Both the position numbers and the translations under genes were made by a program. Shown here piece after piece: positions 13,270 to 63,477 of a DNA stretch of 64,000 nucleotides. A model generated the notes under the pieces. The model made no database searches and was not told where the DNA came from. It was given only the letters and a program-made list of their open reading frames with translations. How positions within the stretch are numbered: position 1 is the stretch's first letter; each line of letters opens with the position of its first letter. Origin of the DNA: Candidatus Magasanikiibacteriota bacterium. GTDB lineage: Bacteria; Patescibacteriota; Patescibacteriia; Magasanikbacterales; GWA2-37-8. The DNA lies in the NCBI GenBank assembly GCA_023246725.1, contig JAHFHV010000001.1, forward strand, positions 13,618 to 77,617, read 5' to 3'.

Positions 13270-13297
13270 GGCCAAAAATAAACCTAATTTTTTAATT

Positions 13298-14254
13298 ATG
13301 CATGAACCAACCTATCGCGCGGCTGTGGGCCACGCCTGGAAATTAACTTGGCACCATAAAAGCTTATGGGTGCTTGGGCTCTTATCGATTTTTTTAGGGC
13401 AGTTTGGACTAGCTAATTTTATTGGGCAATTGGCGAGCAAGATATTTTTTGCGGACAGCTCGTGGTGGCCGGCTTCCTGGGGGGCGGTGCATATTGCCAG
13501 TCCGGATCAATTTGTATGGTTTAGCTGGCTGGCCTTTATAACGGCAGCCCTTACCATGTTTGTGGTGGCGGCGGCCGCCTGCGCCGAAGGGGCGCTGATT
13601 GCTACGGCGGTGCATTATTTTAACGTGCGCACGGTGTTAAGCATTCACAATGCGTGGCGGCAGGGAGTGAAACATTTTTGGCGAATACTAGCGGTGAATG
13701 TGCTAGAAAAATTATCGCTGGCCGTTATTTTAGCAGTGCTGTTAGAACTGATAACTTTTTTTTCCGGAGCGAGCGTGTGGTGGTTTGGTTTTGGAGTGCT
13801 TTTGATTGCCGTTTGTTTGTTCGCGGCGCTGGCAATTTCTACCGTGGCCATTTTTACCTTAGGTTATGTTATGGTTGACAACCAGGGGTTAATTGATGCC
13901 CTGGCCGAAGCGTGGCGTCTGTTTTGCCGCCATATTTTTGTTTCTTTAGAATTGAGCCTGATGCTGTTAGTTTGCAATGCCCTGGTGTTCGCGGCGCTTT
14001 GGCTCGGGTCATTCCTCGTGCTCATTCCCTCATTTTTTATTTCCCTGGCGGCGGGCTTTACCGGGTATTTGACGCTTTTATCTATTTCGGTGGTAGCATA
14101 TGTGTTTTTGTTTGTGCTCGTGGTCGCTTGGCTCGGCGCGATTTTTAACGCCTTTACTACCAGCGCCTGGATGTATTTGTTTATGCATATGTACCATGAG
14201 GGGTTGGGGAGCCGATTGAAACATTGGGCGGGGAAAGTATTAAAGCGAACGTAA
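13298..14254 (+). CDS. Hypothetical polytopic membrane protein
   Basis: At least 6 hydrophobic segments; no family recognised. Confidence 0.5.
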   Translation: MHEPTYRAAVGHAWKLTWHHKSLWVLGLLSIFLGQFGLANFIGQLASKIFFADSSWWPASWGAVHIASPDQFVWFSWLAFITAALTMFVVAAAACAEGALIATAVHYFNVRTVLSIHNAWRQGVKHFWRILAVNVLEKLSLAVILAVLLELITFFSGASVWWFGFGVLLIAVCLFAALAISTVAIFTLGYVMVDNQGLIDALAEAWRLFCRHIFVSLELSLMLLVCNALVFAALWLGSFLVLIPSFFISLAAGFTGYLTLLSISVVAYVFLFVLVVAWLGAIFNAFTTSAWMYLFMHMYHEGLGSRLKHWAGKVLKRT

Positions 14255-28728: not shown

Positions 28729-29853
28729 ATGCTAATTAAACGCATAATTCAGCCAAAAATTGAAGCTTCTCTATTTAAAGGCAAAGCCATTATTATTTAT
28801 GGCGCCCGCCAGGTAGGCAAAACCACCTTGGTTAAAGAAATTCAAAAGAAATTTGTGGCCGCGTCCCTTTACCTGAATTGTGATGAACCAGACATCCGCG
28901 CGGCCCTTACGAACACCACCTCCACCGAGCTCAAGGCGTATTTTGGGACTAAAAAAATAATTATTATTGATGAAGCCCAGCGCGTGGAAAACATCGGCCT
29001 GACGCTTAAACTGCTCGTGGATGCTTTTCCCGAATTGCAAATCATCGCGACCGGATCTTCGTCGTTTGAATTGTCCAACCGCATTGTGGAGCCTTTAACC
29101 GGGCGCGCCTTTGAATTTTTGTTATATCCTTTTTCCAGCGAAGAGCTTGGCGAACAGTACGCGCCCCTGGAAATCAAACGTCTGTTGGAACAGCGGCTTA
29201 TTTATGGGATGTACCCGGAAATTGTGGAACAAACGGAAAATATTGCCACGCGCTTAAAAAACATCGCCCGCAGTTACGCGTACAAAGATATTTTATTCTA
29301 CCAGCATATCCGCAACCCGGATATTTTAGAAAAATTACTGTCGGCCTTGGCTTTGCAAATTGGCCATGAGGTATCGTACAGCGAGCTGGCCAAGCTCCTT
29401 AGCATTAACCGCGTTACCGTGGAAAACTACGTGGCAATTTTAGAAAAAGCGTTTATTATTTTTCGCCTGCGCCCGTACAGCACGAATCCGCGCAAGGAAC
29501 TGGCCAAACTGCGAAAAATTTATTTTTACGACACCGGCATTCGCAATGCTCTCATTAATAACCTTAACCCGCTTAATTTGCGCAGCGATGCTGGCGCGCT
29601 GTGGAAGAATTTTTGGATTCTGGAACGCCTAAAAAATAACCATAATCATGGCCGTGACGCGCGCGCTTATTTTTGGCGTAATTATCAGAAGCAAGAAATT
29701 GATTATATTGAGGAAGCGAATGGGAAGCTGGCGGCCTTTGAATGCAAATGGTCGGTAACCAAACCAGCGCGAGCGCCCTCTGGCTGGCGCGCCCTCTACC
29801 CGGGTGCCTCGTTTACCGCGGTACACCCGGGTAACTTTTTAGAAATTAAATAG
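28729..29853 (+). CDS. AAA+ ATPase, DUF4143 type
   Basis: Walker A GARQVGKTTL, Walker B IIIDEAQ; paralog of 52389..53633. Confidence 0.7.
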   Translation: MLIKRIIQPKIEASLFKGKAIIIYGARQVGKTTLVKEIQKKFVAASLYLNCDEPDIRAALTNTTSTELKAYFGTKKIIIIDEAQRVENIGLTLKLLVDAFPELQIIATGSSSFELSNRIVEPLTGRAFEFLLYPFSSEELGEQYAPLEIKRLLEQRLIYGMYPEIVEQTENIATRLKNIARSYAYKDILFYQHIRNPDILEKLLSALALQIGHEVSYSELAKLLSINRVTVENYVAILEKAFIIFRLRPYSTNPRKELAKLRKIYFYDTGIRNALINNLNPLNLRSDAGALWKNFWILERLKNNHNHGRDARAYFWRNYQKQEIDYIEEANGKLAAFECKWSVTKPARAPSGWRALYPGASFTAVHPGNFLEIK

Positions 29854-42745: not shown

Positions 42746-43510
42746 ATGGAAGATTTTGGTAAGCCAACAAACAGGTGGCATCAAACCTGGTGGGGAGTGG
42801 TATTAATCAGCCTCGTCGCGCTCATTTTTATTATAGTTATAGTTGTGGCCGGCTTTACCAGCTGGTACTGGTGGCAAATTCGCCATGGCGCAGGCGCGTT
42901 TTTAAGCAGGCAATTTGCCGCTCCGTTTACGGTCTCGGTGGCGGGCAATACCGTTAAACCAAGAGCAACGGACCGTGCGGCGTTAGAAATTGCTACGGCG
43001 CCGGCTTTGGGCAGGCAAGGCGCCCCCATTACGATTGTTGAATTTATTGATTTTAAATGCCCGAATTGCCAAGCGGCCGCCCCGATTATGCGCCAGCTTA
43101 TGGCCAAGTATGGCTATACCGCGCGGCTCCTAGTCAGGCATATTCCGCCGGAGTCGATGCATCCGGGCACCACGCGCTTGTCTGAATTTGCTTGGTGCGC
43201 TGGCGCGCAAGGGCGCTTTTGGGAAGCGCATGATTGGCTGTTCAGCCGCCAGGCTGAAATTTCGGACGCGCCAACCCCAGCAGAGCTCGCGGCGCTATCC
43301 CGGGAGGCCGGGCTTGACTCGCAAAAAATGAACGCTTGTTTAAATGGGCCCGCGGCCGAGCGCGCGGTTAAAGCCGATTATTTTGACGCGCTCCGTTTTG
43401 GCGTGCGCGGCACGCCGACGTTTTTTATCAATGGGCAAAAAATTGAAGGCGTCATTCCCTTAAGCGCTTGGGAAAATTATTTTAAGACTATTATTCCAGC
43501 CATTAAATGA
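42746..43510 (+). CDS. DsbA-family thiol:disulfide oxidoreductase, membrane-anchored, CPNC active site
   Basis: ITIVEFIDFKCPNCQAAAP, FAWCAGAQGRFWEAHDWLF. Confidence 0.8.
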   Translation: MEDFGKPTNRWHQTWWGVVLISLVALIFIIVIVVAGFTSWYWWQIRHGAGAFLSRQFAAPFTVSVAGNTVKPRATDRAALEIATAPALGRQGAPITIVEFIDFKCPNCQAAAPIMRQLMAKYGYTARLLVRHIPPESMHPGTTRLSEFAWCAGAQGRFWEAHDWLFSRQAEISDAPTPAELAALSREAGLDSQKMNACLNGPAAERAVKADYFDALRFGVRGTPTFFINGQKIEGVIPLSAWENYFKTIIPAIK

Positions 43511-43525
43511 ACTAAGAATTGAGAT

Positions 43526-44968
43526 ATGCGCGCGTTTTTTTTGCTTATCATTGCCAGTTTTTTTATCGCGGTCTCGCCCCCCACGGCTTTGGCCGCGGAG
43601 CCTAAGATTGATCCGGCGTTTAATCCGATTTGCTGGCAAGAAAAGGACTGCGCTTGCGCCCGCGCTAAATTTTTGCGTCTTGATTGTAAAAATCCCCAGG
43701 ACCCAGCTTTGCAAGGAGGATTTGTGCGCGGCGCGGCCCCGTGCGACGCGACCGGCTGGGGCAAATGTTTGCCGGTTGGCAAAACCGTAACCGAAATTTC
43801 GTTTGGCGGCAAGCGGGAATTTGCCAATGTGGCTGTTTTTATCCAGTTGTTGTACCGTTATGCCATTGGCGTCGCGGCCATTATCGCGGTAGCCATGATT
43901 ATGGTAGCGGGCGCGCAATGGATTACGTCCGCTGGCAACAGCGAGGCCATTGCCAGCGCCAAAAAACGCATTGGAGGCGCCCTCATGGGGTTGTTTCTGG
44001 CGTATCTTTCTTTTTTTATTTTGAACGCGCTTAATCCAGCGCTGGTAAATTTTCGTTTGCCCCAGGTTTTTATGGCCCGCCCAAGCCATGCCGTGCCGCA
44101 GTTTTGTTCCACGGTTTCTTCCACCGGCCAGTTTGAATTCGCGGCCAGCAAGGACAATCAGACCGTTAAGCCCAGCCTGTCGGCCCAGGCTAGTTTTTCT
44201 TTAGCGTATGCCGACCCAGCCGCCCGGGATAAATTTGTCTGCGGCAACCGGCTGTTTATTAAAAATGGCGGCGAGCAGACGTGTTTTGGAGATGTGTGCA
44301 ACCCGGGAGCAATGTGTATTGACTTGGATGATCTGGGAAAGACCGCGCCGTTCCATTGTTCTAGCGTCAGCATTATTGGCCGGATTACCAATGATAAGTT
44401 TACTGATTCAGGCTGCCTGGCAGCCACCGCCGGCCACTTGCTTTCTGGCGAAGGGTGGGAGAGTCCTCTGATTGTAAGCCATTGTAAAGTTTGTTCAAAC
44501 AAACCATGGGTTATTTGTAAGAATGGAACCAAGGTTAAAATTAGCGATGCTCGCGGCGAACTCTATGAGATGGAAGACCAGCAAAGTTATTATTTTTCTC
44601 TGTCCGGTTTAATGATTGATAATGCCGCCAAGCAATGCGGAAACCAAGGAGCAAAAGGAATCGTGATTAATTTTGAAATGAATGAAGACTGTGATATGAC
44701 AAATGAAAATCATTGGATTGGTTATGATGGCGAAGCCGGCGCTAACCAGAACCGAGGCAAGGATTTGGGCGATGATAGATTTTTTGAAAAAAATTCTGCG
44801 ACCATGCCGGAAAAATATTTTATTCCGCTGGATAAGGTTAAAAAAGGCATTATTTTAAATGTGTTTGCCGCGTCGGATATACATGATATTGACTGCCCGG
44901 GAGTGTTTGACAGCAAGGAATGCGACGCGGTGCGCGCAAAATTCTATTCGGACTTGCTTCGAAATTAG
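43526..44968 (+). CDS. Exported Cys-rich protein with internal VirB2/TrbC-pilin-like two-helix hairpin
   Basis: Signal peptide; AIGVAAIIAVAMIMVAGAQWITSAG-NSEAIASAKKRIGG-ALMGLFLAYLSFFILNALNP; 20 Cys; paralogous region in 53848..55422. Confidence 0.55.
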   Translation: MRAFFLLIIASFFIAVSPPTALAAEPKIDPAFNPICWQEKDCACARAKFLRLDCKNPQDPALQGGFVRGAAPCDATGWGKCLPVGKTVTEISFGGKREFANVAVFIQLLYRYAIGVAAIIAVAMIMVAGAQWITSAGNSEAIASAKKRIGGALMGLFLAYLSFFILNALNPALVNFRLPQVFMARPSHAVPQFCSTVSSTGQFEFAASKDNQTVKPSLSAQASFSLAYADPAARDKFVCGNRLFIKNGGEQTCFGDVCNPGAMCIDLDDLGKTAPFHCSSVSIIGRITNDKFTDSGCLAATAGHLLSGEGWESPLIVSHCKVCSNKPWVICKNGTKVKISDARGELYEMEDQQSYYFSLSGLMIDNAAKQCGNQGAKGIVINFEMNEDCDMTNENHWIGYDGEAGANQNRGKDLGDDRFFEKNSATMPEKYFIPLDKVKKGIILNVFAASDIHDIDCPGVFDSKECDAVRAKFYSDLLRN

Positions 44969-50968: not shown

Positions 50969-51018
50969 TGATTTTTTGAGCTTGATTTGTCATTTGACCT
51001 TTGGATTTTGATATTTTA
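50969..51018. repeat. Repeat family 2 copy
   Basis: tttgagcttgatttgtcatttgacctttggattttg, matches 6195-6236. Confidence 0.6.
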
Positions 51019-52377
51019 AGCCGTATGTTTAATCAATTCCTGAATATTCACAACGTCGATAATTTTTAATTTATAATTTATAATTTTCAATTTCTTTCCT
51101 CCGTTCGTAATAACTCTTTTTAATCCAACCAACTCACATTCCTTCAGTCGTTTTTCCATTTGCCCTACTGGCCGTACTTCACCACTTAAACCAATTTCGC
51201 CAAATACTACCAGGTCACTTCCGAGTACCTTGTCTTTATAGGAGCTCGCAATGGATAGCGCCACCGCCAAATCTGCGGCCGGTTCACTGGCTTCCAGGCC
51301 TCCCACCACATTCACATGCACATCATATTGTTCCAGTTTCAGTCCAGCGCGCTTTTGCAAAACCGCTATCAACACGTGCAATCGATTAATATCAAATCCA
51401 CTCGCCTTGCGCGTGGGATACCCAAACGCCGTCTTGGTTACTAGTGCCTGAATTTCCACCAAGAGCGGGCGCGTTCCTTCCAAGAGGCAGGTGAGGACAT
51501 TCCCGGGCGCGTTTTCACCGCGCTCCAGTAAAAATTGCGCGGACGGATTTTTCACTTCTTTGAGTCCTTCAGAGTGCATTGCAAAAATCCCTACTTCATC
51601 CGTGGCGCCAAAACGGTTTTTCACCGTACGCAGAATTCGGTAATCATGGTGGCGGTCGCCCTCGAGGTACAGCACTGTATCTACCACATGCTCCAAAGTT
51701 TTCGGTCCAGTAATCGTCCCATCTTTAGTTACGTGGCTCACCAGGACTACCGCGGTGCCGGTGGTTTTGGTGGCTTCGAGAAGTTTTACCGCGCTGGCGC
51801 GAATCTGGTTCACGTTCCCGGGTTCGCCTTCCACTTCCCCGGAAGAGATGGTTTGGATGGAATCGATAATAGCCAGAGCTGGTTTTGTAGTTTGAATCGT
51901 CGCAATGATCGTTTCAACATCAGTTTCGTTCCCCAGGCGCAGTGTCCCCGAAGAAATATGTAACCGGTCAGCCCGGAGTTTAATTTGCTCAATGGATTCC
52001 TCCGCCGAAAGATACAAGGTGCTGGGGATTGCCGCGGCCAACTGCAAGGCCAAGGTCGATTTTCCAATCCCCGGCTCACCACCCAGCACAATCAAACTCC
52101 CGGGCACCAGGCCCCCGCCCAGCACGCGGTCCAGCTCGCCAATATTGGTTTTAATACGCGTGAGATTTTTTCCTTCAATTTCTTGCAAACCAAACGTCTT
52201 GGCTGTGGGATAATTACTATTTGAATTTTGGTTTTTGGATTTGATTTGGAATTTGACATTTGACATTTGACATTTTTCAATCGTTCCCCATTTACCACAT
52301 TCCAAACACCGGCCCGTCCATTTAGTGAACTGGGCGTCGCAGTTGGCGCAGGCAAAAATGAGGGAGTCTTTGGGCAT
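51016..52377 (-). CDS. radA: DNA repair protein RadA/Sms, with family-2 repeat inserted in linker
   Basis: N-terminal C4 zinc finger CANC...CLEC, RecA-like Walker A GEPGIGKST, KNRFG motif, C-terminal Lon-like domain. Confidence 0.88.
   Translation of the reverse strand: MPKDSLIFACANCDAQFTKWTGRCLECGKWGTIEKCQMSNVKFQIKSKNQNSNSNYPTAKTFGLQEIEGKNLTRIKTNIGELDRVLGGGLVPGSLIVLGGEPGIGKSTLALQLAAAIPSTLYLSAEESIEQIKLRADRLHISSGTLRLGNETDVETIIATIQTTKPALAIIDSIQTISSGEVEGEPGNVNQIRASAVKLLEATKTTGTAVVLVSHVTKDGTITGPKTLEHVVDTVLYLEGDRHHDYRILRTVKNRFGATDEVGIFAMHSEGLKEVKNPSAQFLLERGENAPGNVLTCLLEGTRPLLVEIQALVTKTAFGYPTRKASGFDINRLHVLIAVLQKRAGLKLEQYDVHVNVVGGLEASEPAADLAVALSIASSYKDKVLGSDLVVFGEIGLSGEVRPVGQMEKRLKECELVGLKRVITNGGKKLKIINYKLKIIDVVNIQELIKHTA
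52215..52276. repeat. Repeat family 2 copy in-frame in radA (encodes KCQMSNVKFQIKSKNQNSNSN)
   Basis: atttgacatttgacatttgacattttt on + strand inside minus-strand ORF. Confidence 0.75.
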
Positions 52378-52388
52378 ATTGATACTTT

Positions 52389-53633
52389 TTATATCACCCA
52401 TCGAGGAAGAAAATGCACGGCGGTGTTTTCTATTTTTGTGGCATGGAAGGCGGAATCTCCCAAAAGTAAAGCGTGGGACGGGCGGTATTCCCGTATAAAG
52501 TTGTGAAGCGATCGAGTAACGGTCGCTGTATTGAGCAAACTTTTACTTTCGATGGGAATTACCGTTGGTCCGGTTTTAACAACAAAATCAACCTCCGACT
52601 GGGATTTGCTGCGCCAATAATTGACTGAGCAATTCTGTTTTAAGAGTTGCGTAAAAATAAAATTTTCATATAGCGGCCCCTTGTCGCTCCGCCGGTTAAG
52701 CGGGTTAAAATTTTGCAGGACATAATTTCGCAGACCAGTGTCGAAAAAATACGGCTTAGGATTTTTGGTGATTTCTTTGCGTCGGTTGGAAAACCACGGC
52801 CGCACCAGTTGGCAGATAAAAGTTTTTTCCAGAATATTGAGATATTTTTTTAGGGTTATCTGATCGTATCCGGAAATTTGGCCGAGTTCGTTATAGTTTA
52901 CTAATTGCCCGATTTGCACCGCCAAGGCTTCAATTAGTTTTGAGAGCTTAAAATCATCAATTAGGCCCAAGGTATCCTTAATATCACGCAGAAAATAGGT
53001 GTTGTAAATATTGCTTAAAACAGTCATTTTTTTATCTTCGGTATCTTCTAGTATTACTCGCGGGTAGCCGCCCCAAATAATAAATTCATCGGCCAGCGCT
53101 AAAAGTTGGCTATTAGCAGGGCCGCTAATTTTTAGCGAGGCAATGCTTGGTTTTTTTAAATTAATGTGCTGGCGGCATTCCGCGTATAGCGCCATGAGCG
53201 ATGGATCGCGGAAAGACACGAATTCCTCAAAATCAAGCTCATACAGGTTAAAAATAAAAACCCGGCCGACTAAAAATTTTAGCGCCTTGATGGTTAAATC
53301 AATAGCGCTGGAACCGGAAATTATTATTTTACAGCCCGGGTAAGTGTCATAGAGATATTTAAGATTTTTTCCGCCTTGCTTGGCATATTGGAATTCATCA
53401 ATAAATAGGTATTTGCCTGCTAAGTATTTCTTGGCAAATCCGTCAATATCCCGTTCAAAGTCAGCCAGGGTTTGCATTTTATCAAAACTAATAAAAACCG
53501 CGTCGCTTAAGCCGCCATGGATTTTTTTTAACAACGTGGTTTTGCCGCTTTGCCGCGGGCCGACAATTGCCAAAATTTCTGGGTCTTCTAAATAGCTTAA
53601 AATGGTAGTCTCTAATTTTCGCTTAATATACAT
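52389..53633 (-). CDS. AAA+ ATPase, DUF4143 type (paralog 2)
   Basis: Walker A GPRQSGKTTLL, Walker B LFIDEFQ. Confidence 0.7.
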   Translation of the reverse strand: MYIKRKLETTILSYLEDPEILAIVGPRQSGKTTLLKKIHGGLSDAVFISFDKMQTLADFERDIDGFAKKYLAGKYLFIDEFQYAKQGGKNLKYLYDTYPGCKIIISGSSAIDLTIKALKFLVGRVFIFNLYELDFEEFVSFRDPSLMALYAECRQHINLKKPSIASLKISGPANSQLLALADEFIIWGGYPRVILEDTEDKKMTVLSNIYNTYFLRDIKDTLGLIDDFKLSKLIEALAVQIGQLVNYNELGQISGYDQITLKKYLNILEKTFICQLVRPWFSNRRKEITKNPKPYFFDTGLRNYVLQNFNPLNRRSDKGPLYENFIFTQLLKQNCSVNYWRSKSQSEVDFVVKTGPTVIPIESKSLLNTATVTRSLHNFIREYRPSHALLLGDSAFHATKIENTAVHFLPRWVI

Positions 53634-53847
53634 AAAATTCAGGCATACTTACTAAAATAATATTACAATATCATTTTAGCAGATACAAAAATATATGTCA
53701 AATCTGGGTGTGTATAAATCCAAAACTCCTCTGTTTTTAAGAGGAGTTTTGGGTACCAAATGGTTTCATTATCATTCGTGGCCAAATAACGGAGGCGAAG
53801 TTGGGGTAGATAAAAATTATAGATTTGCCAATTTTTAGTTTAAGATG

Positions 53848-55422
53848 CTAGAAAGGCAGATACCACGAACAGGCGTGGCCTTGTGATGCCGCCTTTTTTT
53901 CTTCATTTTTTAAACCTAACTTTGTCCAATCGAAAGCGCGCGGGTCGCCGTGTCCGTTTGATGGAACTAGTTCACAATGGCCAACAATATTTTTTGAAGC
54001 GAGAGGAATATTATAACGCGCCCTAATATCATCTACCAATTTTTTTAAAGAATCATATTGTGCCGCTGTCGGATCGCATGCTGTGTGTACATCTTGCGCG
54101 GAAGGATTTTTAAGTGAGTTGCATGAATTCCCGCTGGCATCTTTGCCAATATTAAGCTCTATTCCTATGCCATCATTGTTGCCGCCTGGCGCATGGGGGA
54201 CAACACACCTCTCAGCGGCATGTTGAACGATTTTCCCATCCTTGCTAATAGTATAATGCGCGCCAGCAAGTTTGTACTTAATTGGTTTGCCGTTTTTGTC
54301 ATATCTTTCTTTCTCCGGTATCTGATCAGGATTTCTATTGTAAAAACAACCTTTATACCATGTATTCTGGTTCATTTCTAAAGTATAACCACCATTGTGG
54401 ATAACTATTTTTTTAATATTTGATGAATCCCGTGTTTTATAAGTGCAAACATCAACTTTACCAAGAAAAGTTTGTGTATCAACATAGCTACGGTTTTTTT
54501 CTCCGGGAGTAAGTTCTTTCAAAGAATCACATGGGCCAGAGACAGCCTTTATGGCAATAACAGTGGCTTTTTCATCCTCTATATGATTATCTTCTAACGC
54601 TATCTTTGCCACATACTTCACCCGCAAGGCTTTAAAGGCCACTAAATCCGGATTAAGGTAAAACATTATTACGTACGAAAACCACAGAATCATAAGGCCA
54701 ATGACAATCTGCCCAATGCGCTTATAGGCTTCCATTTTGCCTTCGCCGCCGCCGGAAATAACAATGTCAAACCCTTTTTTAATAATAATGGCTACGGCCA
54801 CTACGCTTCCCACGGCCACGCCGAATTTATACACGGCGGCAATGTATTCCCCAATCCACGGGATGTGCAAGAAGCCTTCCGCGTCCACTTGGCCGGACAG
54901 ATCGGAAAATTTAAGCTGGGGAAGGCGGATCATTAGCTTGGGTTTATAGGTGCCGGCGTTAATTTCGTTCTGCAGGCTAAGGCCCCATACCCCGGGGTCG
55001 AGCAAAGCATCAGTGGCGCTGGACTTGCCGGGTTTAAGGGGCGCGCAGATTTCCCCGTGGGTGCTTTCGCAATAGTCTAGGTCTTTTGTGGTGTTAGCGC
55101 CGTCAACACAGCTCCATTCGCCATGGTCGCTGGGAGCGCCGTAGGCGCTAAAACAGTCGTTATCATCGTCGCAGTCGCAATACCATTTGTTTTCAATAAT
55201 GCCACCCTGGTTTTTAAAAACTTCCGTGCTTTTTTCGCAATCGCCGCTAAAACACTGGGAGTCGCCCTGGCATTCTTCGCCAAACTTTTTTTTGCCGCCG
55301 GTAGGAGCCTGTTCGCAGCTGCCGGCCAAGGCCGGCGCTAGCGGCGCGAGAAGAATAAAAATCAAACCGGTTAACCAGCTAACGGCCAGGGCTTTACAGA
55401 TTAATGCTCGTGGGCGCGACAT
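53848..55422 (-). CDS. Exported Cys-rich VirB2/TrbC-pilin-like protein fused to Amidase_2/PGRP peptidoglycan amidase
   Basis: Signal/TM, Cys-rich N-domain, helical hairpin AVAIIIKKGFDIVISGGGEGKMEAYKRIGQIVIGLMILWFSYVIMFYLNPDLVAF parallel to 43526 protein; C-terminal amidase-like block HAPGGNNDGIGIEL...GHCELVPSNGHGDP. Confidence 0.55.
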   Translation of the reverse strand: MSRPRALICKALAVSWLTGLIFILLAPLAPALAGSCEQAPTGGKKKFGEECQGDSQCFSGDCEKSTEVFKNQGGIIENKWYCDCDDDNDCFSAYGAPSDHGEWSCVDGANTTKDLDYCESTHGEICAPLKPGKSSATDALLDPGVWGLSLQNEINAGTYKPKLMIRLPQLKFSDLSGQVDAEGFLHIPWIGEYIAAVYKFGVAVGSVVAVAIIIKKGFDIVISGGGEGKMEAYKRIGQIVIGLMILWFSYVIMFYLNPDLVAFKALRVKYVAKIALEDNHIEDEKATVIAIKAVSGPCDSLKELTPGEKNRSYVDTQTFLGKVDVCTYKTRDSSNIKKIVIHNGGYTLEMNQNTWYKGCFYNRNPDQIPEKERYDKNGKPIKYKLAGAHYTISKDGKIVQHAAERCVVPHAPGGNNDGIGIELNIGKDASGNSCNSLKNPSAQDVHTACDPTAAQYDSLKKLVDDIRARYNIPLASKNIVGHCELVPSNGHGDPRAFDWTKLGLKNEEKKAASQGHACSWYLPF

Positions 55423-55425
55423 ATT

Positions 55426-56073
55426 TTATTTCGCGATTAAACTCATCAGCATCTGCTCAAGATCAACAGCTTGATCTACGCGCACTCGTTTGTTGTTGGC
55501 AAACAAAGCCGGCGGGTTTTTAAGGCCCAGCGCCGCGGCCAGGCTGGCGCCAGCGTCAATCCCCGGCTCCATGGTTCCAGACGACAAGCACTGCTGCCAT
55601 TCAGTAAGGTTAAGTTTAAGCGCCGCGGCCAATTCCCGCAGAGCCTTGGCGCCGGCTTTGGTTGGCCGCGCCGCCAGCTGGTCGGCATACTGCCAAAATT
55701 TGCCTTGCGCGCCAGCGCACCAAGCGGCCACATGCGGGGCAAGATTGGCCGGGGAAAACAGCTGGCTCTTAGGCAAGTCCTTCCAGGCCAGCCGGGCATC
55801 GCTCGGGTGCGCGTCCACAAAGGCAGCGAGCGTCCGCAATATTTTTTTACTAGCCGCATCGCCTAAATCGGCGAAGATCACCAGTGTGAGCGGCGCCCCG
55901 GGGTTGCCGCGCAGGGGGTCGCTGCTTAAAATTGGCAGGGGGTAGTTCTCAAAACTAATTAAAGGAGCGACTTCGGCCGTGGTCACAATTCCTTGCGCGC
56001 GTTTAACCTGACGCCAGAAAATTATGGCCAGGATGATTGTGCAGAGCCCGATAATCAACAATAGTTTTTTCAT
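55426..56073 (-). CDS. DsbA-family thioredoxin-fold protein, CXXC lost (degenerate paralog of 42746 DsbA)
   Basis: LTLVIFADLGDAASK where CPNC expected; AAWCAGAQGKFWQYADQLA conserved with 42746 product. Confidence 0.6.
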   Translation of the reverse strand: MKKLLLIIGLCTIILAIIFWRQVKRAQGIVTTAEVAPLISFENYPLPILSSDPLRGNPGAPLTLVIFADLGDAASKKILRTLAAFVDAHPSDARLAWKDLPKSQLFSPANLAPHVAAWCAGAQGKFWQYADQLAARPTKAGAKALRELAAALKLNLTEWQQCLSSGTMEPGIDAGASLAAALGLKNPPALFANNKRVRVDQAVDLEQMLMSLIAK

Positions 56074-56074
56074 A

Positions 56075-57331
56075 TTATAAGTTTACCTGAAACACCCCCT
56101 GTTTATTGGGATCCGTAAACAGCACCTTATTTTTTTTAGCATCGTAGGATATTGAATTGATGTGAAAGTTATTACCCAAGGGAACATTGGTGGTCAAACC
56201 GGTTTTCAAATCAATTTTGTACATGTCATCGGGCAGAGTGTCGGCAATGGCCGGCGACATGCCCGCTCCTTGGGGCAAGTCGCGCGGCACAGCGCAGAAC
56301 AGGGTGTTGTCATCGCCAAACGAACATTTGTTAGCCCAGGTGTTTAAGCGCAGAGTTTGGCGGTTGCTGCCAATATCATCACCATACGAATTCACCACCC
56401 ACAGCTCTGGTTTAAAATCGCTGCGGGCGCTATCCACGCTGTAAAGCAGTTTTTTACCGGTCGGCGACCACTGCGGCTGAAAATTCAACCCTTCCACGAC
56501 CGTGGATTTAAAATTTTCCCCGTTCAAGCCCACAAATAATACTTCCACCCGGTCGGCCCCTTGCGGCGCCCCGGTGCGGGACAAAGCCACGGTTTGCCGG
56601 CTGGGCGACCAATCCACGGTAACGCGGTCGCCATTATCGCCCAAGGGTTCAATTAGCTTGGTGCCGGTGCCGTCGTCTTTGGCTACCACCAGCCAGCGGT
56701 TTTCCGGTGAGAGTCCTAGGCTTTTGGCCGCTACTTCCGTGCTATCTGGGGAAAAGGAAAAATCTTGCCAGTGTTTGGGCAAGGTAATTTGTTTTTTAAG
56801 ATCAAAATTGTACAAAATTTTGGAGCTGTCGGGGTACTCCAGCACCGCTTTGTTACCAGTTTTTGCCCAGGTAACATTTTGGACGTTATAGAATACTTGG
56901 TCGCTTAAGGCAGTGGTTTGCCCAGCGTCGCCCACGCGGTAAAATTTGCCGTCTTGCGCGTTATGGTAGCGAAAATCGCCGCTCGCCGCCAGAGAAGAAA
57001 AAACGGCCGCGTCAGCATTAAGCTGAGTTACCGGTTCCGGCGTAAAGTAGCTGGGCGTCGCTCCAGGAATGGCGCCTGCCGTCGGCAAGCCTCCTTCCGC
57101 GCCGCCGCTTGGTGTTGCCTCGCCCGCCCCGGGCACGCGTTCTCCCGCGCCCGGCAGCTGGCCAGGCGCTGCGCCCGGGCGAGTTCCGCCGACCGTGGTG
57201 GGGGGCGGCGTGGCCTTAAAAAACAGCGTGAAAATGCCCCAGGCAATTAAAGCCGAGATTGTAAGCAAGCCGAGGATGAGGAGAATTCGTTTGAGTCCAG
57301 AAGACATAGGAAGTGAAATATCAAATGACAA
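56075..57331 (-). CDS. Membrane-anchored PD40 (TolB-like) beta-propeller repeat protein
   Basis: N-terminal TM, Pro/Gly-rich linker, repeated propeller blades. Confidence 0.55.
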   Translation of the reverse strand: MSFDISLPMSSGLKRILLILGLLTISALIAWGIFTLFFKATPPPTTVGGTRPGAAPGQLPGAGERVPGAGEATPSGGAEGGLPTAGAIPGATPSYFTPEPVTQLNADAAVFSSLAASGDFRYHNAQDGKFYRVGDAGQTTALSDQVFYNVQNVTWAKTGNKAVLEYPDSSKILYNFDLKKQITLPKHWQDFSFSPDSTEVAAKSLGLSPENRWLVVAKDDGTGTKLIEPLGDNGDRVTVDWSPSRQTVALSRTGAPQGADRVEVLFVGLNGENFKSTVVEGLNFQPQWSPTGKKLLYSVDSARSDFKPELWVVNSYGDDIGSNRQTLRLNTWANKCSFGDDNTLFCAVPRDLPQGAGMSPAIADTLPDDMYKIDLKTGLTTNVPLGNNFHINSISYDAKKNKVLFTDPNKQGVFQVNL

Positions 57332-57350
57332 ATGTCAAATACCAAATGTG
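57313..57350. repeat. Repeat family 2 copy
   Basis: tatcaaatgacaaatgtcaaataccaaatg. Confidence 0.6.
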
Positions 57351-57367
57351 ATTATCGCCGTGATTTT

Positions 57368-59317
57368 TTATTTCGCGTTGGCGGGTGTCGTAGGCGCGGG
57401 CGCGGGCGGCGGCGCTCCGCCGGTTTTGCCTCCCGCAGAAATTGTCGCCTGGTTTGGCAGGGCTCCGGCCGAGCCCTCGTCGGCCAGTTCTTTGTTAATG
57501 TCAACGAGTTTGTTTTTGAGGTAAACTTTTTTCTTTTCAACGGCCAGCTTTTCTTCCAGCGGCTTAAGTTTTTTGTTAATATCTTCAATCACATCGCCAA
57601 TCGCTTTTACCAGCGGCGCCGCCGGAATGTTTATGGCGCGCAAGGGCTTAATGAACTCCCTGGCTAGAATAAACATCGCGATTGGTATGGCGATGACGGG
57701 CGAGATGATTGCCAAAACAATACCAGCCGGGAAGAATATGCCCAGCAGACGCAAAATCCATTTTAAAACTATCCAGCCGGCGTCAATTTCGGCGCCCGGC
57801 AAAATTTGCGCGAACCGAAGCGACGAACGAGCGCTCTTAAGAATTCCAATCCGCGCTTCCAGGGCCGTTATCATCACTTCGCTCGTTACATTCTCCAGGC
57901 CGTATTTCATGCCTTCTATTTTAGCATAAATGCCGGGAAGAAAAAAGCGGATAATCCGGAGCGAGGTGGTTTTTTTGATGCTGTCCACCTTGCCTTGCAT
58001 TTGGTTTAGCTCTTTCATTATCGCGTCCCGGGCTTTTTTAAGCTTTTGTTTGCGGCTACGAAGAGCGTTGGCAATACCCCCCTGGTCTTTGGATTTGGCG
58101 GCTTCGGGAGGCGCACCATCTTTGCCCGGGGCGCCAGCGGCTTGACCAGCGCCTCCCTCCGAGGGAACTTGCTCGGGCGGGTTGAGCCGCTCATCGTTAG
58201 CCGTGGCCGGCTGGTCATTCGCGCCAGCTGGTTCCGACTGGGCGCCGCGCTCGGCCCCTAACTGGGCGGCTTTATCGCGGTTTAAATCGTTGACGGCTTC
58301 AGGGGGAGCCGCGGGCGGCTCTGTGCCCGGGGCGGAGGGGCCCGCTTCCGGGGCGGCTGGAGAGGCTTCGCCTTCGGTGCCCGGGGCGGCTGGTTGTTCG
58401 CCGTCAGTTGGTGAAGGCTGTTCCCCGCCCGCAGCCTTGTTTGCGGCGTCGGCATCAGAGTCATTTTTTTGTTCAGCGGGATTATCTTCATTTTGATCTT
58501 TTTCCGCTGTTTCATCGGTTGGTTTTTCGTTGTCTGCCGGGGAGCTGGGGGCCTCCGGTGCCGCGTTTTTGGATTGTTCCGGCGGAGTTTCTCCAGGCGC
58601 TGATTCCGTTCCAACCGGCTGTCCAGTCTTGTCATCAGGACCAGCCGTCGGAGTATTGTCGCCACCTTGCGCTGGGCCGCCCTCTGGCTTTGGAGCTGGG
58701 ACGGGCGTCTCTTGGTCGCTTGGCCCGCCAACGCCAGGGGGGACGGTCTGGGCGGTTGGTTTTTCTTTTGTCTCTCCGCCGCTAGCCGCTGGCTGTTCTG
58801 CCTCGCCGCCCTCTGGCGCTGGTTCGCTTTCGGCCGCCCCCCGCTCATACTCGTCACGGGCCGCTGCCCAGGCGGCTTCGTCCAAGGCGTTGCCGCCGTT
58901 GTTTTTTTCCGCCGCTAAAAGTATCTCCTGCCAAGCATCGTCTTGTTCCGGCAAGGGAAGATTAGTTTTTAAGTTCACTATGAGTTTGTTGCCAGAAGTT
59001 TGCGCTTGGTTCCCTGGCCCCGAACTTACTGCGTTAACAACTTCCACTGGGGCACCAGAACCAGAAACTGGAGTAGTAGGTTCGGCTGACACCGGCGCCG
59101 GCTGATCTTTCTCCGGAGCTTTAGAAGCCTGTGCCGCGAGATCGGCAATGGTTCTGTTGTTGTCATGCCTAACGTTTCTGGTTTGCCCAAGTTTCGTGCG
59201 CAAAGCGCGGTGTTTTAAATAATCAGAATAGCCGCTCGAGGCAGGAGTAGCGCCTTCCGCGTCTGGCGCGGCACCCGGCAACTGCGGGGTGGGAGCCGTG
59301 GAAGGGTCAACAGGCAT
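57368..59317 (-). CDS. Hypothetical membrane protein with about 400-aa Pro/Ala/Glu/Gly-rich low-complexity region
   Basis: C-terminal TM segments (IFFPAGIVLAIISPVIAIPIAMFIL); compositional high-GC due to low complexity. Confidence 0.5.
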   Translation of the reverse strand: MPVDPSTAPTPQLPGAAPDAEGATPASSGYSDYLKHRALRTKLGQTRNVRHDNNRTIADLAAQASKAPEKDQPAPVSAEPTTPVSGSGAPVEVVNAVSSGPGNQAQTSGNKLIVNLKTNLPLPEQDDAWQEILLAAEKNNGGNALDEAAWAAARDEYERGAAESEPAPEGGEAEQPAASGGETKEKPTAQTVPPGVGGPSDQETPVPAPKPEGGPAQGGDNTPTAGPDDKTGQPVGTESAPGETPPEQSKNAAPEAPSSPADNEKPTDETAEKDQNEDNPAEQKNDSDADAANKAAGGEQPSPTDGEQPAAPGTEGEASPAAPEAGPSAPGTEPPAAPPEAVNDLNRDKAAQLGAERGAQSEPAGANDQPATANDERLNPPEQVPSEGGAGQAAGAPGKDGAPPEAAKSKDQGGIANALRSRKQKLKKARDAIMKELNQMQGKVDSIKKTTSLRIIRFFLPGIYAKIEGMKYGLENVTSEVMITALEARIGILKSARSSLRFAQILPGAEIDAGWIVLKWILRLLGIFFPAGIVLAIISPVIAIPIAMFILAREFIKPLRAINIPAAPLVKAIGDVIEDINKKLKPLEEKLAVEKKKVYLKNKLVDINKELADEGSAGALPNQATISAGGKTGGAPPPAPAPTTPANAK

Positions 59318-59326: not shown

Positions 59327-61870
59327 TTATTTTATTTCCAGATGATTATCATTCATGACAAGCTGATACTGGCGTTTAACTTTATGTTCAAAAATAAGTT
59401 CCGCTATCAGGCTTTCCACATCGCTCCTGACCAGGCGGCGAATTTCGCGCGCGCTTTGGTCAGGCTTTTTAAGGTTTTCAATAATCGTTTGGAGCGTTTC
59501 ATCTTTGGCGGTTACTTTAGTGTGGTAGGCGCTAAGGCGTTCGTTGAGTTCGTTCAGTTCGCGCTCGGCAATGGCCACCAACTCCGGCATTCCCAAATGT
59601 TTAAAGTAGCAAATCGCGTCCAGCCGATTAATTATTTCCGGAGAAAAGAATTTTTTTAAAGTTTCTTTTAAATGGTCTTCTTGTTCGCGGTCGCTGCGTT
59701 CGCTGTTGCCAAATCCCACCAACCCCTTTTTAGCATCGTCCGCTCCCAGCGAGGTCGTTAAAATAATAATGGCGTGCCGGAGGGAGATTTTTTTGCCGGC
59801 CGCGTCCGTAATCGCGCCATTTTCCAGCATCTGGAGCAGGAGCCGCGTCACGTCTTTGTGCGCCTTGTCAATTTCGTCAAATAAAATGACCGAGTAAGGG
59901 TTGAGTTTAATTTTGTCGGAGAATTGGTTGCTTTCTTTGTACCCCACATACCCGGCGGGGGAGCCGAGGAGTTTTGACACGCTGTAGCCTTCGTTAAATT
60001 CGCTCATGTCCAGTTTAATCAGCGCGTCTTGGCCCGGGTAGAGCGTTTTGGCCAGCGTTTTAGCTAGTTCGGTTTTGCCTACCCCGCTTTCGCCCACGAA
60101 TAAAAACGAGACCAAAGGCCGTTCGGCATTGGACAGGCCCAGCTGAGCTTGACGCACTAATTTACTCACCATTTCAATAGCGGTCTTTTGGCCTACTACC
60201 GAGTCCGAGAGATGCTCGGCTAAGCTGCGCATTCCCTGGCTGGTTTCTAAAATAAGTTCGCTTGGCGCGATACCAGTTATTTTGGCTACTTGGGCCACCA
60301 CGTCTTTTTCCGTTACCGTACCCACGCGTTTGATTTTTTTAGTATCAGCCAGCGCCGCTTGTTTTTTAATGACCCCGCTCAGTTCTTCCTCTTCTTTTTT
60401 ATATTTCACGGCGGCTGTAAAATCATCCGCGCCAGCGGCCGCTTCTTTAGCGTTAATCGTTTGTTCTAATTGCTGTTCCAGCCGCCATAGTTTGCTTACG
60501 GCCGGGGAGCCTTTGGCCGTGAGGCGCTTGGCCGCGGCGGTTTCGTCCAAAAGATCAATCGCCTTATCAGGTAGAAATTTACTGGTGATGTAGCGAGTCG
60601 AGAGTCGGACGGCCGCGGCCACCGCCTCGTCAGCAATCGTCACTTGGTGGTACGTTTCATAATTAGCTTTAAGGCCATTCAAAATCGCAATTGTGTCCGC
60701 CACGCTTGGCTCGGGCGTAATAACCGGCTGAAAACGGCGCTCCAAAGCCGGGTCGCTTTCAATATATTTTTTGTACTCGCCCGGAGTGGTGGCGCCAATG
60801 CACCTAAGTTGCCCGCGCGCCAACGCCGGCTTTAACAGGTTGGCCGCGTCCAGAGTGCCTTGGTTAGAGCCAGCGCCCACAATGTTATGAATTTCATCAA
60901 TAAACATAATAATATCCGGCCGGCTCGTTACTTCCTCAATCACTTGTTTTAAGCGGCCTTCAAATTCGCCGCGGTACATCGTTCCGGCTATCAAAAGACC
61001 CATATCAAGGCTGTAAATTTTTTTATTCAATAACAGTTCCGGTACCCGTCCGGCCACAATCCGCTTAGCCAAGCCTTCTACAATCGCGGTTTTTCCCACG
61101 CCCGGCTCGCCTAGGAGAAGCGGGTTGTTTTTGGTGCGCCGGCTTAACACATGAATCACCCGCTCAATTTCTTTGTCACGTCCAATCACCGGGTCAATGT
61201 CGGCCTGCGCTTCGGGAGACGTTAAATTCGTCGCGAACCAATCTAAAGCGGTTTCTTTTTTGCGCCCCGAATTTTGCGCGCTTGATGGCTTGGTTTTTTT
61301 GGCCTCGACGTGGTGAGAATGTTCGGCGTGCCAAGCATCGCCTAAATTTTCTTGGAGCCTTTCTACCACCTCGGCCACTTCCGTGATTCTGGGGAATTGG
61401 CTGGCATTGCTAAGGACGGCATCCAGCTGATGCGCCAGGTCGGAAATTTTTACCATGTTTACTTTTAACACATCATCAATGAGCGCGTCGTTCAGCCGGA
61501 TAATGGCGATGAGAAGGTGCTCGGTGCCAATGTAGGCGTGACTATTTTCCTGGGCGATTAGCATGGCTTTCTCCAGCGCAGTTTTGGTGGCCGGGGATAA
61601 CGGCGTCAAAACGGCTTGAGCCGTCGCTCCCGGGCTGGCTGGAGTCAGAGGTTCGGCGGCCGCCGGCAAGCTTAATACAGCCTGCTCCATGGTTTTAACA
61701 TTCAGCTTAAGGCGATTCAAAATTTCGGAGGCCACCGAGCCTTTTTGAGTGGACAAGGCAAACAAGACGTGGATTGGCTCCACGAGCGGGTTGTTGAGTT
61801 CCGCCGCCACCTGAATACTGCGCGCCAACACATCGCGCAAGTGGCTGGAAAAACGGTCGATGATGTTCAT
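59327..61870 (-). CDS. clpC: Clp/Hsp100 ATPase with N-domain, ClpC-like
   Basis: Clp_N repeats, two AAA modules ([15 protein letters not shown]; [15 protein letters not shown]), short M-domain; 847 aa. Confidence 0.88.
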
Positions 61871-61975: not shown

Positions 61976-62044
61976 GGTGATTGATTTTTCAATGCATATA
62001 TTATATAGTATGGGAATCGTTTAGTCAAAGTAATTTTTCTTCGT

Positions 62045-62866: not shown

Positions 62867-63181
62867 ATGGAGGTACAATTCTTTGATGAGGCACTAGTAA
62901 AGTTTATCAGAACACTTGAACAATCAACTGGCGCCAAGATTTTTCGCGCAATTGATTTGCTTGAACGTTTTGGTTCAACGCTAGGGATGCCGCACAGCAA
63001 AAAGATCGCACTTCGGTTATTTGAACTGCGAATCAGAGGTCAGCAAGAAGTGAGGATTTTGTACGCATTCCATAATAATACCGCCATGTTATTGCATGGA
63101 TTTGTTAAAAAAACCGATCGTATTCCCGCCCGGGAATTACGTACTGCCTTACAAAAATTAGCGACACTTGACAAAGTATAA
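62867..63181 (+). CDS. higB: Type II toxin HigB-like (Gp49/RelE superfamily)
   Basis: LFELRIRGQQEVRILYAF...LLHGFVKKTDRIPARE pattern; precedes HTH antitoxin. Confidence 0.7.
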   Translation: MEVQFFDEALVKFIRTLEQSTGAKIFRAIDLLERFGSTLGMPHSKKIALRLFELRIRGQQEVRILYAFHNNTAMLLHGFVKKTDRIPARELRTALQKLATLDKV

Positions 63182-63204
63182 CGTATATGTTATACTGAAT
63201 TTAT

Positions 63205-63477
63205 ATGAAATCATACACTGAAATTAAAAAGGAATTTCTTAAAGATCCTGCTTTCCGCAAAGCCTATGAAGAACTGGGGCCTGAGTTTGAATTGGCCAGC
63301 ATGATTATTGAGAAGCGCCTGCGTAAAGGGCTGACACAAAAAGCGCTGGCTAAAAAAATTGGAACTCAACAGTCAGCTATTGCCCGCCTTGAGTCCGGAG
63401 ATTATAACCCAACAATAGCGTTTTTAGAAAAAGTTTCTAAAGCGCTTGGTGCTCGTTTGTCAATCTCGTTAGGTTAG
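63205..63477 (+). CDS. higA: HigA-like antitoxin, XRE-family HTH
   Basis: LRKGLTQKALAKKIGTQQSAIARLESG helix-turn-helix. Confidence 0.75.
   Translation: MKSYTEIKKEFLKDPAFRKAYEELGPEFELASMIIEKRLRKGLTQKALAKKIGTQQSAIARLESGDYNPTIAFLEKVSKALGARLSISLG

Follow-up and report, generated by a model that had tools for sequence, protein, structure and literature searches.

A conserved gene cluster of Magasanikbacteria predicted to encode membrane-tethered wall hydrolases with exchangeable heads

Results

A four-gene envelope cluster ends in a hairpin-amidase gene

In a 64-kb stretch of contig JAHFHV010000001.1 from a Candidatus Magasanikiibacteriota bacterium, four open reading frames (ORFs) are packed on the minus strand and end in a gene that joins a two-helix membrane hairpin to a peptidoglycan amidase domain. 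The whole stretch is called the window here and all gene coordinates are positions in it. In gene order the ORFs lie at 59317-57368 (649 aa), 57331-56075 (418 aa), 56073-55426 (215 aa), and 55422-53848 (524 aa). They are predicted to encode a low-complexity membrane protein that we call gene 1, a membrane-anchored beta-propeller, a membrane-anchored DsbA-like protein, and the hairpin-amidase fusion protein. Sequence comparisons and structure models show the last of these to be a predicted extracytoplasmic, membrane-tethered wall hydrolase with an exchangeable head. The cluster to which its gene belongs is conserved and densely packed, and also encodes a highly conserved propeller and a DsbA-like protein predicted to be redox-dead in this organism.

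An earlier reading of this DNA from its letters alone (the original prediction) had placed four minus-strand ORFs at these coordinates and the ORF listing agrees. It had also given gaps of 2-36 bp between them. The tight packing stands, but the exact figures do not, because the gaps measured with the longest ORFs are 36, 1, and 3 nt. With the start chosen by gene callers, 8 codons further in at Met9, the propeller has 410 aa and the first gap grows to 60 nt; Met9 (nt 57307) is likely to be the true start.

The fusion protein carries a predicted zinc amidase

We examined the 524-aa fusion protein (53848-55422, minus strand) with Pfam, alignments, Foldseek, and an AlphaFold2 (AF2) model built from 18 family sequences. 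It begins with a signal peptide (residues 1-33, ALA/GS site) followed by a hypervariable Cys-rich N-domain (residues 34-155, 10 Cys), both encoded at 54958-55422. The N-terminal signal helix is present in the AF2 model; the Cys-rich region (residues 32-148) has a predicted local distance difference test score (pLDDT) below 50 and no fold could be assigned to it. Alignments, profile searches, and the model delimit a constant module at residues 156-275 (54598-54957, minus strand). This module is comprised of a conserved pre-hairpin segment (KPxLxIxIPxLxFSD...IPWIGEYI), two long membrane helices at residues 189-222 and 226-256 (pLDDT 75-88) with the short loop SGGGEGK between them, and an NPDLV motif.

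The remainder of the protein, residues ~300-524 (53851-54525, minus strand), is an Amidase_2/PGRP-type N-acetylmuramoyl-L-alanine amidase domain. Pfam Amidase_2 (PF01510) matches residues 334-495 with E=7.1e-19 (68.9 bits vs a cutoff of 26). Foldseek searches of the PDB gave significant matches exclusively to Amidase_2 folds with a probability of 1.0; the best were the endolysins LysCS/LysC (6srt, 6ssc; E ~1e-6, best 1.3e-6), with further matches to PGRPs and to T7 lysozyme (1lba, E=6.7e-5). Five residues, H342, E422, H482, H491, and D493, are invariant across 16/16 amidase-type relatives. Alignment assigns H342, H482, and D493 as the His/His/Asp zinc ligands and E422 as the catalytic Glu, and the GHC...DP block of the fusion aligns to H154...D164 of AmpD. 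Given a shift of one residue relative to the HMMER alignment, the invariant His491 occupies the position of K162 in AmpD and K128 in T7 lysozyme. The original prediction had called this C-terminus Amidase_2/PGRP-type, which the Pfam match, the Foldseek matches, and the metal and catalytic residues bear out. It had also named structure prediction as a check, and residues 300-510 model as a zinc-amidase fold with pLDDT 80-95. Judged from sequence and model, the hairpin-fused head is an active-looking zinc N-acetylmuramoyl-L-alanine amidase.

The fusion protein has 10 cysteines in the N-domain and 8 in the tail, a content that fits an extracytoplasmic location. Six cysteines of the amidase domain are conserved and two are lineage-specific. 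The extreme C-terminus, HACSWYLPF (residues 516-524, 53848-53877), which includes the conserved C518, is kept in nearly all amidase-type heads. An insertion of ~28 residues, KGCFYNRNPDQIPEKERYDKNGKPIKYKL (residues ~356-384, ~54270-54355), is common only to the window protein and its homolog P0002, and comes with two additional paired cysteines, C326/C359. In the literature that could be searched we found no published description of hairpin-hydrolase fusions, in agreement with the earlier statement that such a fusion seems uncharacterised.

The amidase is one of many heads on a constant hairpin

Relatives were collected in two samples, consisting of six contigs reached via the fusion protein and 80 loci fetched with the propeller as anchor. 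Searching with the fusion protein gave 20 homologs, of which several already bore PF18895 and PF01510 annotations. Two of these homologs share the N-domain and hairpin with the fusion and end in VanY (P0011) or NlpC/P60 (P0020). A filter-free search with the window hairpin returned 4593 clusters (50% identity) at E<=1e-3 and 982 at E<=1e-10. The best 150 hairpin relatives are mostly proteins of 340-830 aa that have the hairpin in their middle, with a few shorter ones.

When Pfam heads were counted over 97 hairpin relatives, VanY occurred in 23, SLT in 10, Peptidase_C39_2 and Amidase_2 in 8 each, Peptidase_M15 in 7, Peptidase_M15_4 in 3, Peptidase_M23 and CHAP in 2 each, and Glucosaminidase, NlpC/P60, and 3D in 1 each. 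To these head families are added tails without a family match. At the locus itself, what follows the hairpin differs widely, with at least 17 unrelated tail clusters. These include Peptidase_C39_2 (14 loci), VanY (12), Amidase_2 (10 + 3), and SLT with or without a GDSL esterase (10), as well as Peptidase_M15, M15_4, NlpC/P60, and 3D. One tail cluster is LAS/VanY-like (hhalign 97.6%, E=3e-12) and another, c5, is weakly GH23-like. Cluster c2 (12 loci) had no match by PDB profile search or by hhalign against the C39_2 cluster, and its consensus GSCGR...PGD...HAAIF only suggests a papain-like peptidase. Thirteen loci contain two or three tandem hairpin genes.

Heads differ even between close relatives. 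The propellers of the window and of its closest relative (L010) are 78% identical and their N-domain and hairpin regions are 56% identical up to residue 283, after which the window protein continues as an amidase and the other as VanY. By domain assignment, the amidase is only one among at least 12 peptidoglycan-hydrolase heads that this constant hairpin carries at the locus. The fusion singled out in the original prediction is better described as one allele of an exchangeable slot.

Extra lytic modules were observed at the same locus in L009 (9463-10239), L086 (2537-4531), L089 (8793-10580), L038 (8907-11243), and L053 (8900-11167). Among them are a separate 3D-domain gene located directly after an amidase fusion, and double heads of SLT and GDSL esterase that possibly combine de-O-acetylation with glycan cleavage. 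In some hairpin proteins the N-terminal ectodomain is a Metallophos/calcineurin-like phosphoesterase.

The cluster is conserved between clpC and radA

In the six contigs ClpC is followed by a variable protein of 168-739 aa, then by a propeller (~413 aa), a Thioredoxin_4 protein (~218 aa), and the hairpin protein; RadA comes next, with RecG in the opposite orientation. The order propeller, thioredoxin-fold protein, hairpin protein was found in ~70/80 species loci, and these genes are adjacent wherever the contig allows. Across species, the median gaps are 9 nt between the propeller and thioredoxin-fold genes and 4 nt between the thioredoxin-fold and hairpin genes. The locus is placed between clpC and radA in all ~70 related species genomes, so the claim of a co-conserved tight gene set holds well beyond this contig. 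At least 564 species genomes encode the propeller, in records titled mostly Candidatus Magasanikbacteria or Patescibacteria, and its sequences make up at least 1350 protein clusters. Many records with this Magasanikbacteria-type locus (L011, L014-L016, L020-L026, and others) are titled 'uncultured Gammaproteobacteria bacterium' and one is titled 'Candidatus Udaeobacter'; these titles are probably mislabelled.

Rates of change differ along the locus. Over 83 loci, the median identity to the window was 64% for the propeller (detectable in 81), 62% for RadA (65), 57% for ClpC (72), 57% for RecG (63), 49% for the hairpin (70), and 36% for the thioredoxin-fold protein (78). The N-domain of the hairpin protein was detectable in 10 loci, the amidase tail in 8, and the C-terminal part of gene 1 in 13. 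The conservation of the propeller matches that of ClpC and RadA. We found no gene consistently located 3' of the hairpin gene, as a possible immunity gene might be, in the six contigs; radA, an ATPase gene, or another hairpin gene occupies that position.

Domain searches and synteny identify the upstream anchor in the window as clpC (59327-61870, minus strand; Clp_N and two AAA modules) and the downstream anchor as radA (51016-52401, minus strand). ClpC is directly upstream in every relative examined. The original prediction described a 4-gene operon, and this needs revision. The clpC stop codon is 9 nt ahead of gene 1, the best sigma-70-like promoter match (TTGACT-17-TATAAT, 11/12; 62000-62028, minus strand) is located 5' of clpC where it is a candidate transcription start by consensus match only, and there is a stem-loop 3' of the last gene. 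Because of these features, the cluster is probably co-transcribed as the tail of the clpC transcription unit. Direct inspection of the sequence showed that the stem-loop (53720-53752, minus strand) has a stem of 13 bp, CCAAAACTCCTCT-TAAAAAC-AGAGGAGTTTTGG, followed by ATTTAT. It lies ~95 nt past the stop codon of the hairpin-amidase gene and is a possible terminator, with a weak T-run and no call from a terminator scanner.

An AAA_14/DUF4143 ATPase gene (52389-53633, minus strand) is inserted between the hairpin-amidase gene and radA in the window. Only the genome of the window and the relative closest to it (L003/L010) have this insertion. The inserted gene has a strong promoter-like site (53701-53673) in front of it, and a paralogous AAA_14/DUF4143 ATPase gene is present at 28729-29853 (plus strand). 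Just upstream of the clpC promoter region there is a Gp49-like toxin/HTH antitoxin pair (62867-63477, plus strand).

The DsbA-like partner lacks the CXXC motif

The third gene (55426-56073, minus strand) encodes a membrane-anchored DsbA-like thioredoxin-fold protein without active-site cysteines. Its match to Thioredoxin_4 has E=1.7e-6 (28.8 bits vs a cutoff of 23.2) and the DSBA model matches below its threshold. The other DsbA of the window (42746-43510, plus strand), to which it is 26% identical (E=2e-15), has an intact CPNC motif and probably supplies the disulfide-oxidase activity of this genome. In multiple alignments with the orthologs and with this other DsbA, the CXXC column reads DAAS (FADLG-DAAS-KK; D72-A73-A74-S75, codons at 55849-55860, minus strand). 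The original prediction had seen DLGD in place of CXXC. It was right about the loss, and its motif register was two residues off. It had also allowed that the loss could be a sequencing error. We reject this because three independent assemblies agree on the protein at 100% identity and relatives share the loss. At the level of sequence, then, the description of a redox-inactive thioredoxin-fold partner is borne out by the absence of CXXC.

This protein was originally taken for a distinct, dead DsbA paralog. It is rather an ortholog of proteins that keep CxxC in ~70% of related species. Among 79 orthologs, 55 have CxxC, 1 has CxxxC, and 23, including the window protein, have no motif Cys; the replacement motif is [D/N/S/T]xx[S/T/A/G/D/Y]. 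All 79 orthologs keep Cys119, Cys162, and Pro188, with the exception of an ambiguous residue at the Pro188 column in L017. Pro188, which is assigned as the cis-Pro-loop proline by alignment position alone, is thus seen in 78/79. When mapped on a neighbor-joining tree of the propeller, CxxC is ancestral and must have been lost independently at least 8 times. A motif with one remaining Cys does not occur among the 79 orthologs, and both cysteines have always been lost together. The CxxxC ortholog (CSKEC; L073, 8238-8897) may represent an intermediate or an alternative active site.

We considered whether a dead thioredoxin-fold protein is paired with a cysteine-poor hairpin partner and rejected this, since the total Cys content of the partner is no lower where CXXC is lost than where it is kept (16.2 vs 14.1, p=0.08). 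Loss is also not strictly associated with head type; VanY-, amidase-, and C39_2-type heads occur with both states. Between the window, with its amidase head, and the closest relative, with its VanY head, the DsbA-like protein is 50% identical. Because this identity persists across the change of head, the protein cannot be specific for the catalytic head. Together with the persistence of the gene and its intact structural features, this suggests that the protein has kept a binding role, perhaps toward the constant portion of its hairpin partner, or helps folding more generally. A literature search on CXXC-less DsbA pseudoenzymes found nothing usable.

The propeller and gene 1

AF2, Foldseek, and alignments identify the product of the second gene (56075-57331, minus strand) as a membrane-anchored, seven-bladed beta-propeller with a transmembrane helix (residues 11-37), a disordered Pro/Gly linker (39-94), and the propeller itself (100-418). 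The pLDDT is 81 overall and ~90 over the all-beta residues 100-418. Foldseek returned more than 1400 matches to seven-bladed propellers of the WD40/tricorn type at identities of 15% or less. Cys336 and Cys346 are invariant. The TolB model scored 17.4 bits vs a cutoff of 343, and the N-terminus is the transmembrane helix and linker, not a TolB N-domain. A PD40 signal is faint and only occasional in homologs. The earlier 'PD40 propeller' thus stands as a seven-bladed propeller, but the PD40 label is over-specific.

Composition and domain searches describe gene 1 (57368-59317, minus strand) as a low-complexity N-terminus followed by a hydrophobic stretch, a Lys/Glu-rich helical region, and a Pro-rich tail. 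Its first ~430 residues contain 17.7% A, 13.7% P, 10.5% G, and 9.5% E. The hydrophobic stretch of ~45 aa (residues 515-559) probably forms two membrane helices. No Pfam match and no signal peptide were found in gene 1, and it is the least conserved member of the cluster (168-739 aa in relatives).

A second hairpin protein in the window

Only one other ORF in the window has the hairpin module. This first copy (43526-44968, plus strand) follows the intact DsbA and encodes a 480-aa protein with a signal peptide, a 6-Cys N-domain, the hairpin (residues 102-181), and a Cys-rich tail of 300 aa. The two hairpins are homologous by pairwise and HMM matches (34% identity over 80 aa, E=3e-12; family HMM E=1e-24). 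Between the two Cys-rich N-domains we detected no sequence similarity, only a common composition. The original prediction claimed that N-domain and hairpin were both repeated, and this applies to the hairpin alone. The tail of the first copy (residues 182-480) had no Pfam, PDB, or locus-protein match. A scan of metagenome contigs for close relatives of this protein, made to test the pairing of DsbA and hairpin genes, found none.

Relation of the hairpin to type IV secretion pilins

Like the pilins of type IV secretion systems (T4SS), the fusion protein has a signal peptide and two hydrophobic helices with a short loop. Unlike these small proteins (~70-220 aa), it is 524 aa long with ectodomains of 120 aa and 250 aa. 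PF18895 is matched by 30/41 family hairpins, mostly below the cutoff, and TrbC/VirB2 by 4/41 (E<0.01). The window fusion hairpin had no match to Pfam pilin models at E<=0.01, and the first-copy hairpin scored 23.4 bits, below the cutoff of 26.6. A hairpin profile retrieves short stand-alone proteins annotated with PF18895. The same profile found no solved conjugative pilin and only chance matches to helices of G-protein-coupled receptors. These comparisons confirm, at the level of sequence profiles, that the window hairpin is homologous to the PF18895 "T4SS pilin" family.

Neither the 64-kb window, nor the 10 kb beyond it, nor the flanking DNA of relatives contained VirB4, VirB6, a coupling protein, or any other T4SS gene. 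The sole secretion ATPase in the window is of the PilB/T2SSE type (14310-16061). The original prediction likened the fusion to VirB1 and VirB2 of a T4SS, and the context for this analogy is absent, with no T4SS genes nearby and no match of this hairpin to a Pfam or solved pilin. In L009, the interval between radA and recG (12050-13262) contains three ORFs of ~80 aa and one of 148 aa without Pfam matches, which could be small pilin-like genes.

Other surface-related genes in the window

A protein with TPR, thrombospondin-type-3, and OmpA-family regions is encoded at 12075-13127 (minus strand), in the second most GC-rich 2-kb block of the window (0.553, 12001-14000). A wall-binding protein of the OmpA type is surprising for a bacterium of the candidate phyla radiation (CPR), presumed to have a single membrane. 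Two adjoining genes for large surface-type proteins, 21135-23093 (DUF11 repeats, 652 aa) and 23231-25858 (DUF4012, 875 aa), both on the minus strand, share the window with the PilB/T2SSE ATPase.

Discussion

A model for the cluster

We propose that the locus is a Magasanikbacteria-wide envelope module that runs from clpC through a disordered membrane protein, the propeller, the DsbA-like protein, and the hairpin protein to radA. The hairpin protein would be exported by its signal peptide and held in the cytoplasmic membrane by its two helices, with the short loop in the cytoplasm and both disulfide-rich ectodomains facing outward. The amidase head, joined to the membrane by a linker of ~30-40 residues, would cut peptidoglycan next to the cell's own membrane. 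Cutting of the own wall is suggested because so short a linker separates helix 2 from the catalytic domain, an immunity gene is absent, and the locus resembles that of core genes. Plausible purposes would be wall remodelling, daughter-cell separation, or wall opening for surface structures. The slowly evolving propeller would serve as a constant docking or regulatory platform. The DsbA-like protein would be a dedicated folding or handling partner of the hairpin protein that was ancestrally an oxidase; with both cysteines lost here, it would act only as a non-redox binder, either a holdase or an adaptor, and disulfides would be made by the intact DsbA (42746-43510). From these patterns we infer that the products form a complex, which wall is cut, what the propeller and gene 1 do, and that the genes are co-transcribed. 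We give the combination of an own-wall hydrolase, a propeller platform, and a thioredoxin-like holdase or adaptor about an even chance of being correct.

Several observations weigh against this model. The catalytic Lys of AmpD and T7 lysozyme is replaced by His (H491), a correspondence seen only after the one-residue alignment shift; catalytic PGRPs use other residues at this position. The hairpin family is named for T4SS pilins, and such a hairpin may be extracted from the membrane into a filament. The relatives are metagenome-assembled genomes throughout. Finally, turnover of the ectodomains is extreme (N-domain in 10/83 loci, amidase tail in 8/83, at least 17 tail clusters, and 13 tandem loci). 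A housekeeping autolysin rarely shows such turnover, which is more reminiscent of a gene involved in conflict or host interaction.

Alternative explanations

That last point leads to a reading in which the hairpin protein is a weapon directed at hosts or competitors, presenting a swappable peptidoglycan-cleaving head and a variable Cys-rich targeting domain at the contact face. Head swapping would then track the wall chemistry of hosts, and the propeller and thioredoxin-like protein would be conserved presentation machinery of a presumed epibiont. This would explain the extreme turnover of heads and N-domains and the tandem arrays. A constant anchor with hypervariable heads that span nearly every wall-hydrolase class, SLT and GDSL-esterase combinations among them, and heads that differ between close relatives, as in the window and L010, also speak for it, and lytic enzymes on the surface of Patescibacteria have been proposed to compromise host envelopes (PMC11665869). 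We nevertheless regard it as possible rather than probable. A cognate immunity gene is absent and radA or another hairpin gene comes next, a two-helix tether with a linker of ~30-40 residues should not reach beyond the cell's own wall, and the locus is fixed, vertically inherited, and housekeeping-like. A related and still more tentative idea is that the hairpin is a VirB2-type subunit or stalk of a contact structure that presents host-matched wall-cleaving heads and variable Cys-rich targeting domains. If this were true, the propeller, thioredoxin-like protein, and gene 1 would constitute a new presentation machine, head swaps would record host switches, the recurrent loss of the DsbA active site would reflect a change of this protein into a dedicated chaperone or adaptor, and the locus would be a previously unrecognised, phylum-wide system for breaching host walls in the CPR.

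The hairpin could also be a true T4SS pilin, with VirB1 and VirB2 collapsed into one protein that is assembled by a machine encoded elsewhere while the fused hydrolase opens the wall for it. The matches of family hairpins to PF18895 and TrbC/VirB2, the short PF18895 proteins retrieved by the profile, and the existence of SLT-headed variants are consistent with this. We take Magasanikbacteria to belong to the GTDB class ABY1. A survey of T4SS in Patescibacteria, which counted PF18895 matches as VirB2, found VirB2-like genes in 1,948 assemblies and few VirB1 homologs, and ABY1-class T4SS loci are often near recG and radA; the survey does not mention hydrolase fusions (PMC12102498, 2025). We consider this explanation unlikely, given that VirB4, VirB6, and a coupling protein were not found in the 64 kb, 10 kb further upstream, or the relatives' flanks, that the window hairpin has no Pfam pilin match and no similarity to solved conjugative pilins, and that ectodomains of 120-250 aa at both ends make VirB2-type filament packing implausible. 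Somewhat less likely again is that the four genes are mere neighbors, inherited together between clpC and radA without a joint function. The neighborhood of PGM, ClpC, RadA, and RecG is syntenic in the lineage, so co-occurrence could reflect vertical inheritance. However, the genes have stayed 1-36 nt apart (medians 4 and 9 nt across species) even as gene 1 and the ectodomains of the hairpin protein were replaced or diverged beyond recognition, all four products are membrane or extracytoplasmic proteins, and the same window contains a second DsbA-hairpin pair. A domesticated phage lysis cassette, with a holin-like two-helix segment fused to an endolysin, is highly improbable. The amidase matches PHROG endolysin families (phrog_1493, E=9.7e-13) and the solved folds nearest to it are endolysins of phages or clostridia, but neither the hairpin nor the three partner genes have a PHROG match, tblastn found no match in 50,697 phage records, phage context is absent, and the signal peptide and N-terminal ectodomain are not holin-like. 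The chromosomal position is also fixed across at least 70 species. Phage resemblance is confined to the amidase domain, and a phage origin is largely refuted.

Comparison with known systems

The head shares its fold, His/His/Asp metal site, and catalytic Glu with Amidase_2 enzymes such as AmpD/AmiD, T7 lysozyme, catalytic PGRPs, and LysCS (6srt). It differs from them in its two-helix hairpin tether, its 6-8 cysteines, the C-terminal HACSWYLPF, H491 in place of the catalytic Lys, and, in the window protein and P0002 only, the ~28-residue insertion. Gram-positive conjugation systems have wall hydrolases such as PrgK (pCF10), TraG (pIP501), CwlT (ICEBs1), and TcpG, which are encoded inside T4SS operons and have a single N-terminal helix. 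Like the proteins described here, these combine a membrane anchor with mix-and-match SLT, CHAP, NlpC/P60, LytM, and glucosaminidase domains that open the wall locally; unlike them, they are not known to have a thioredoxin-fold or propeller partner or a VirB2-like hairpin. Polymorphic effectors, including the wall-degrading Tae/Tge effectors of type VI secretion systems and the LXG toxins of type VII systems, likewise have a constant N-terminal module, fast-exchanged C-terminal enzymatic heads, and tandem arrays. By contrast, the locus here is fixed and housekeeping-like, lacks a nearby immunity gene and secretion-system linkage, and encodes a predicted membrane-embedded protein.

Actinobacterial-type DsbAs have a second, structural disulfide, and redox-inactive thioredoxin-fold chaperones exist. 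The DsbA-like protein resembles this family in its Thioredoxin_4 match, N-terminal membrane anchor, Cys119/Cys162 pair, and Pro188, and departs from it in the change of CXXC to DAAS, one of at least 8 replacements among orthologs in which both Cys went together. Regulated autolysin complexes, such as FtsEX with PcsB, CwlO, or RipC, and Tol-Pal with its TolB propeller, are alike in function only, in that a wall hydrolase is placed under membrane partners or an extracytoplasmic beta-propeller acts as a scaffold. There are no FtsEX or Tol/Pal homologs here, and the propeller lacks the TolB N-domain and has a generic WD40/tricorn match at 15% identity or less. Among PF18895 and TrbC/VirB2-like proteins of Patescibacteria, the signal peptide, two helices with a short loop, and an NP motif after helix 2 are common to the family described here, most members of which match the PF18895 Pfam model at sub-threshold to borderline scores. 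Those proteins are ~100-220 aa long and often form arrays beside virB4, whereas the hairpin proteins here are mostly 340-830 aa with ectodomains on both sides and are encoded between clpC and radA. In Ca. Southlakia epibionticum a pilin array is essential (PMC10633639).

Significance

The component families are all known. It is the organisation, a constant VirB2-like hairpin with swappable hydrolase heads in a phylum-wide clpC-radA module whose DsbA partner has repeatedly become a pseudoenzyme, that appears to be undescribed, and we found no description of the large hairpin family in the literature searched. Fusion of many wall hydrolases to a 'pilin' hairpin, encoded away from virB4, would explain why the survey of Patescibacteria found VirB2 abundant and VirB1 rare. 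The repeated loss of CXXC, at least 8 times and never half-way, offers a clean, recurrent conversion of an enzyme to a pseudoenzyme, and the exchange of heads is a natural experiment on which wall bonds matter. Patescibacteria make up a large share of bacterial diversity, and very little is understood of how they build, divide, and use their envelope or open that of a host. With its slowly evolving propeller, DsbA-like partner, and a hairpin that exchanges essentially every class of wall hydrolase, this locus provides a lineage-wide handle on the CPR envelope.

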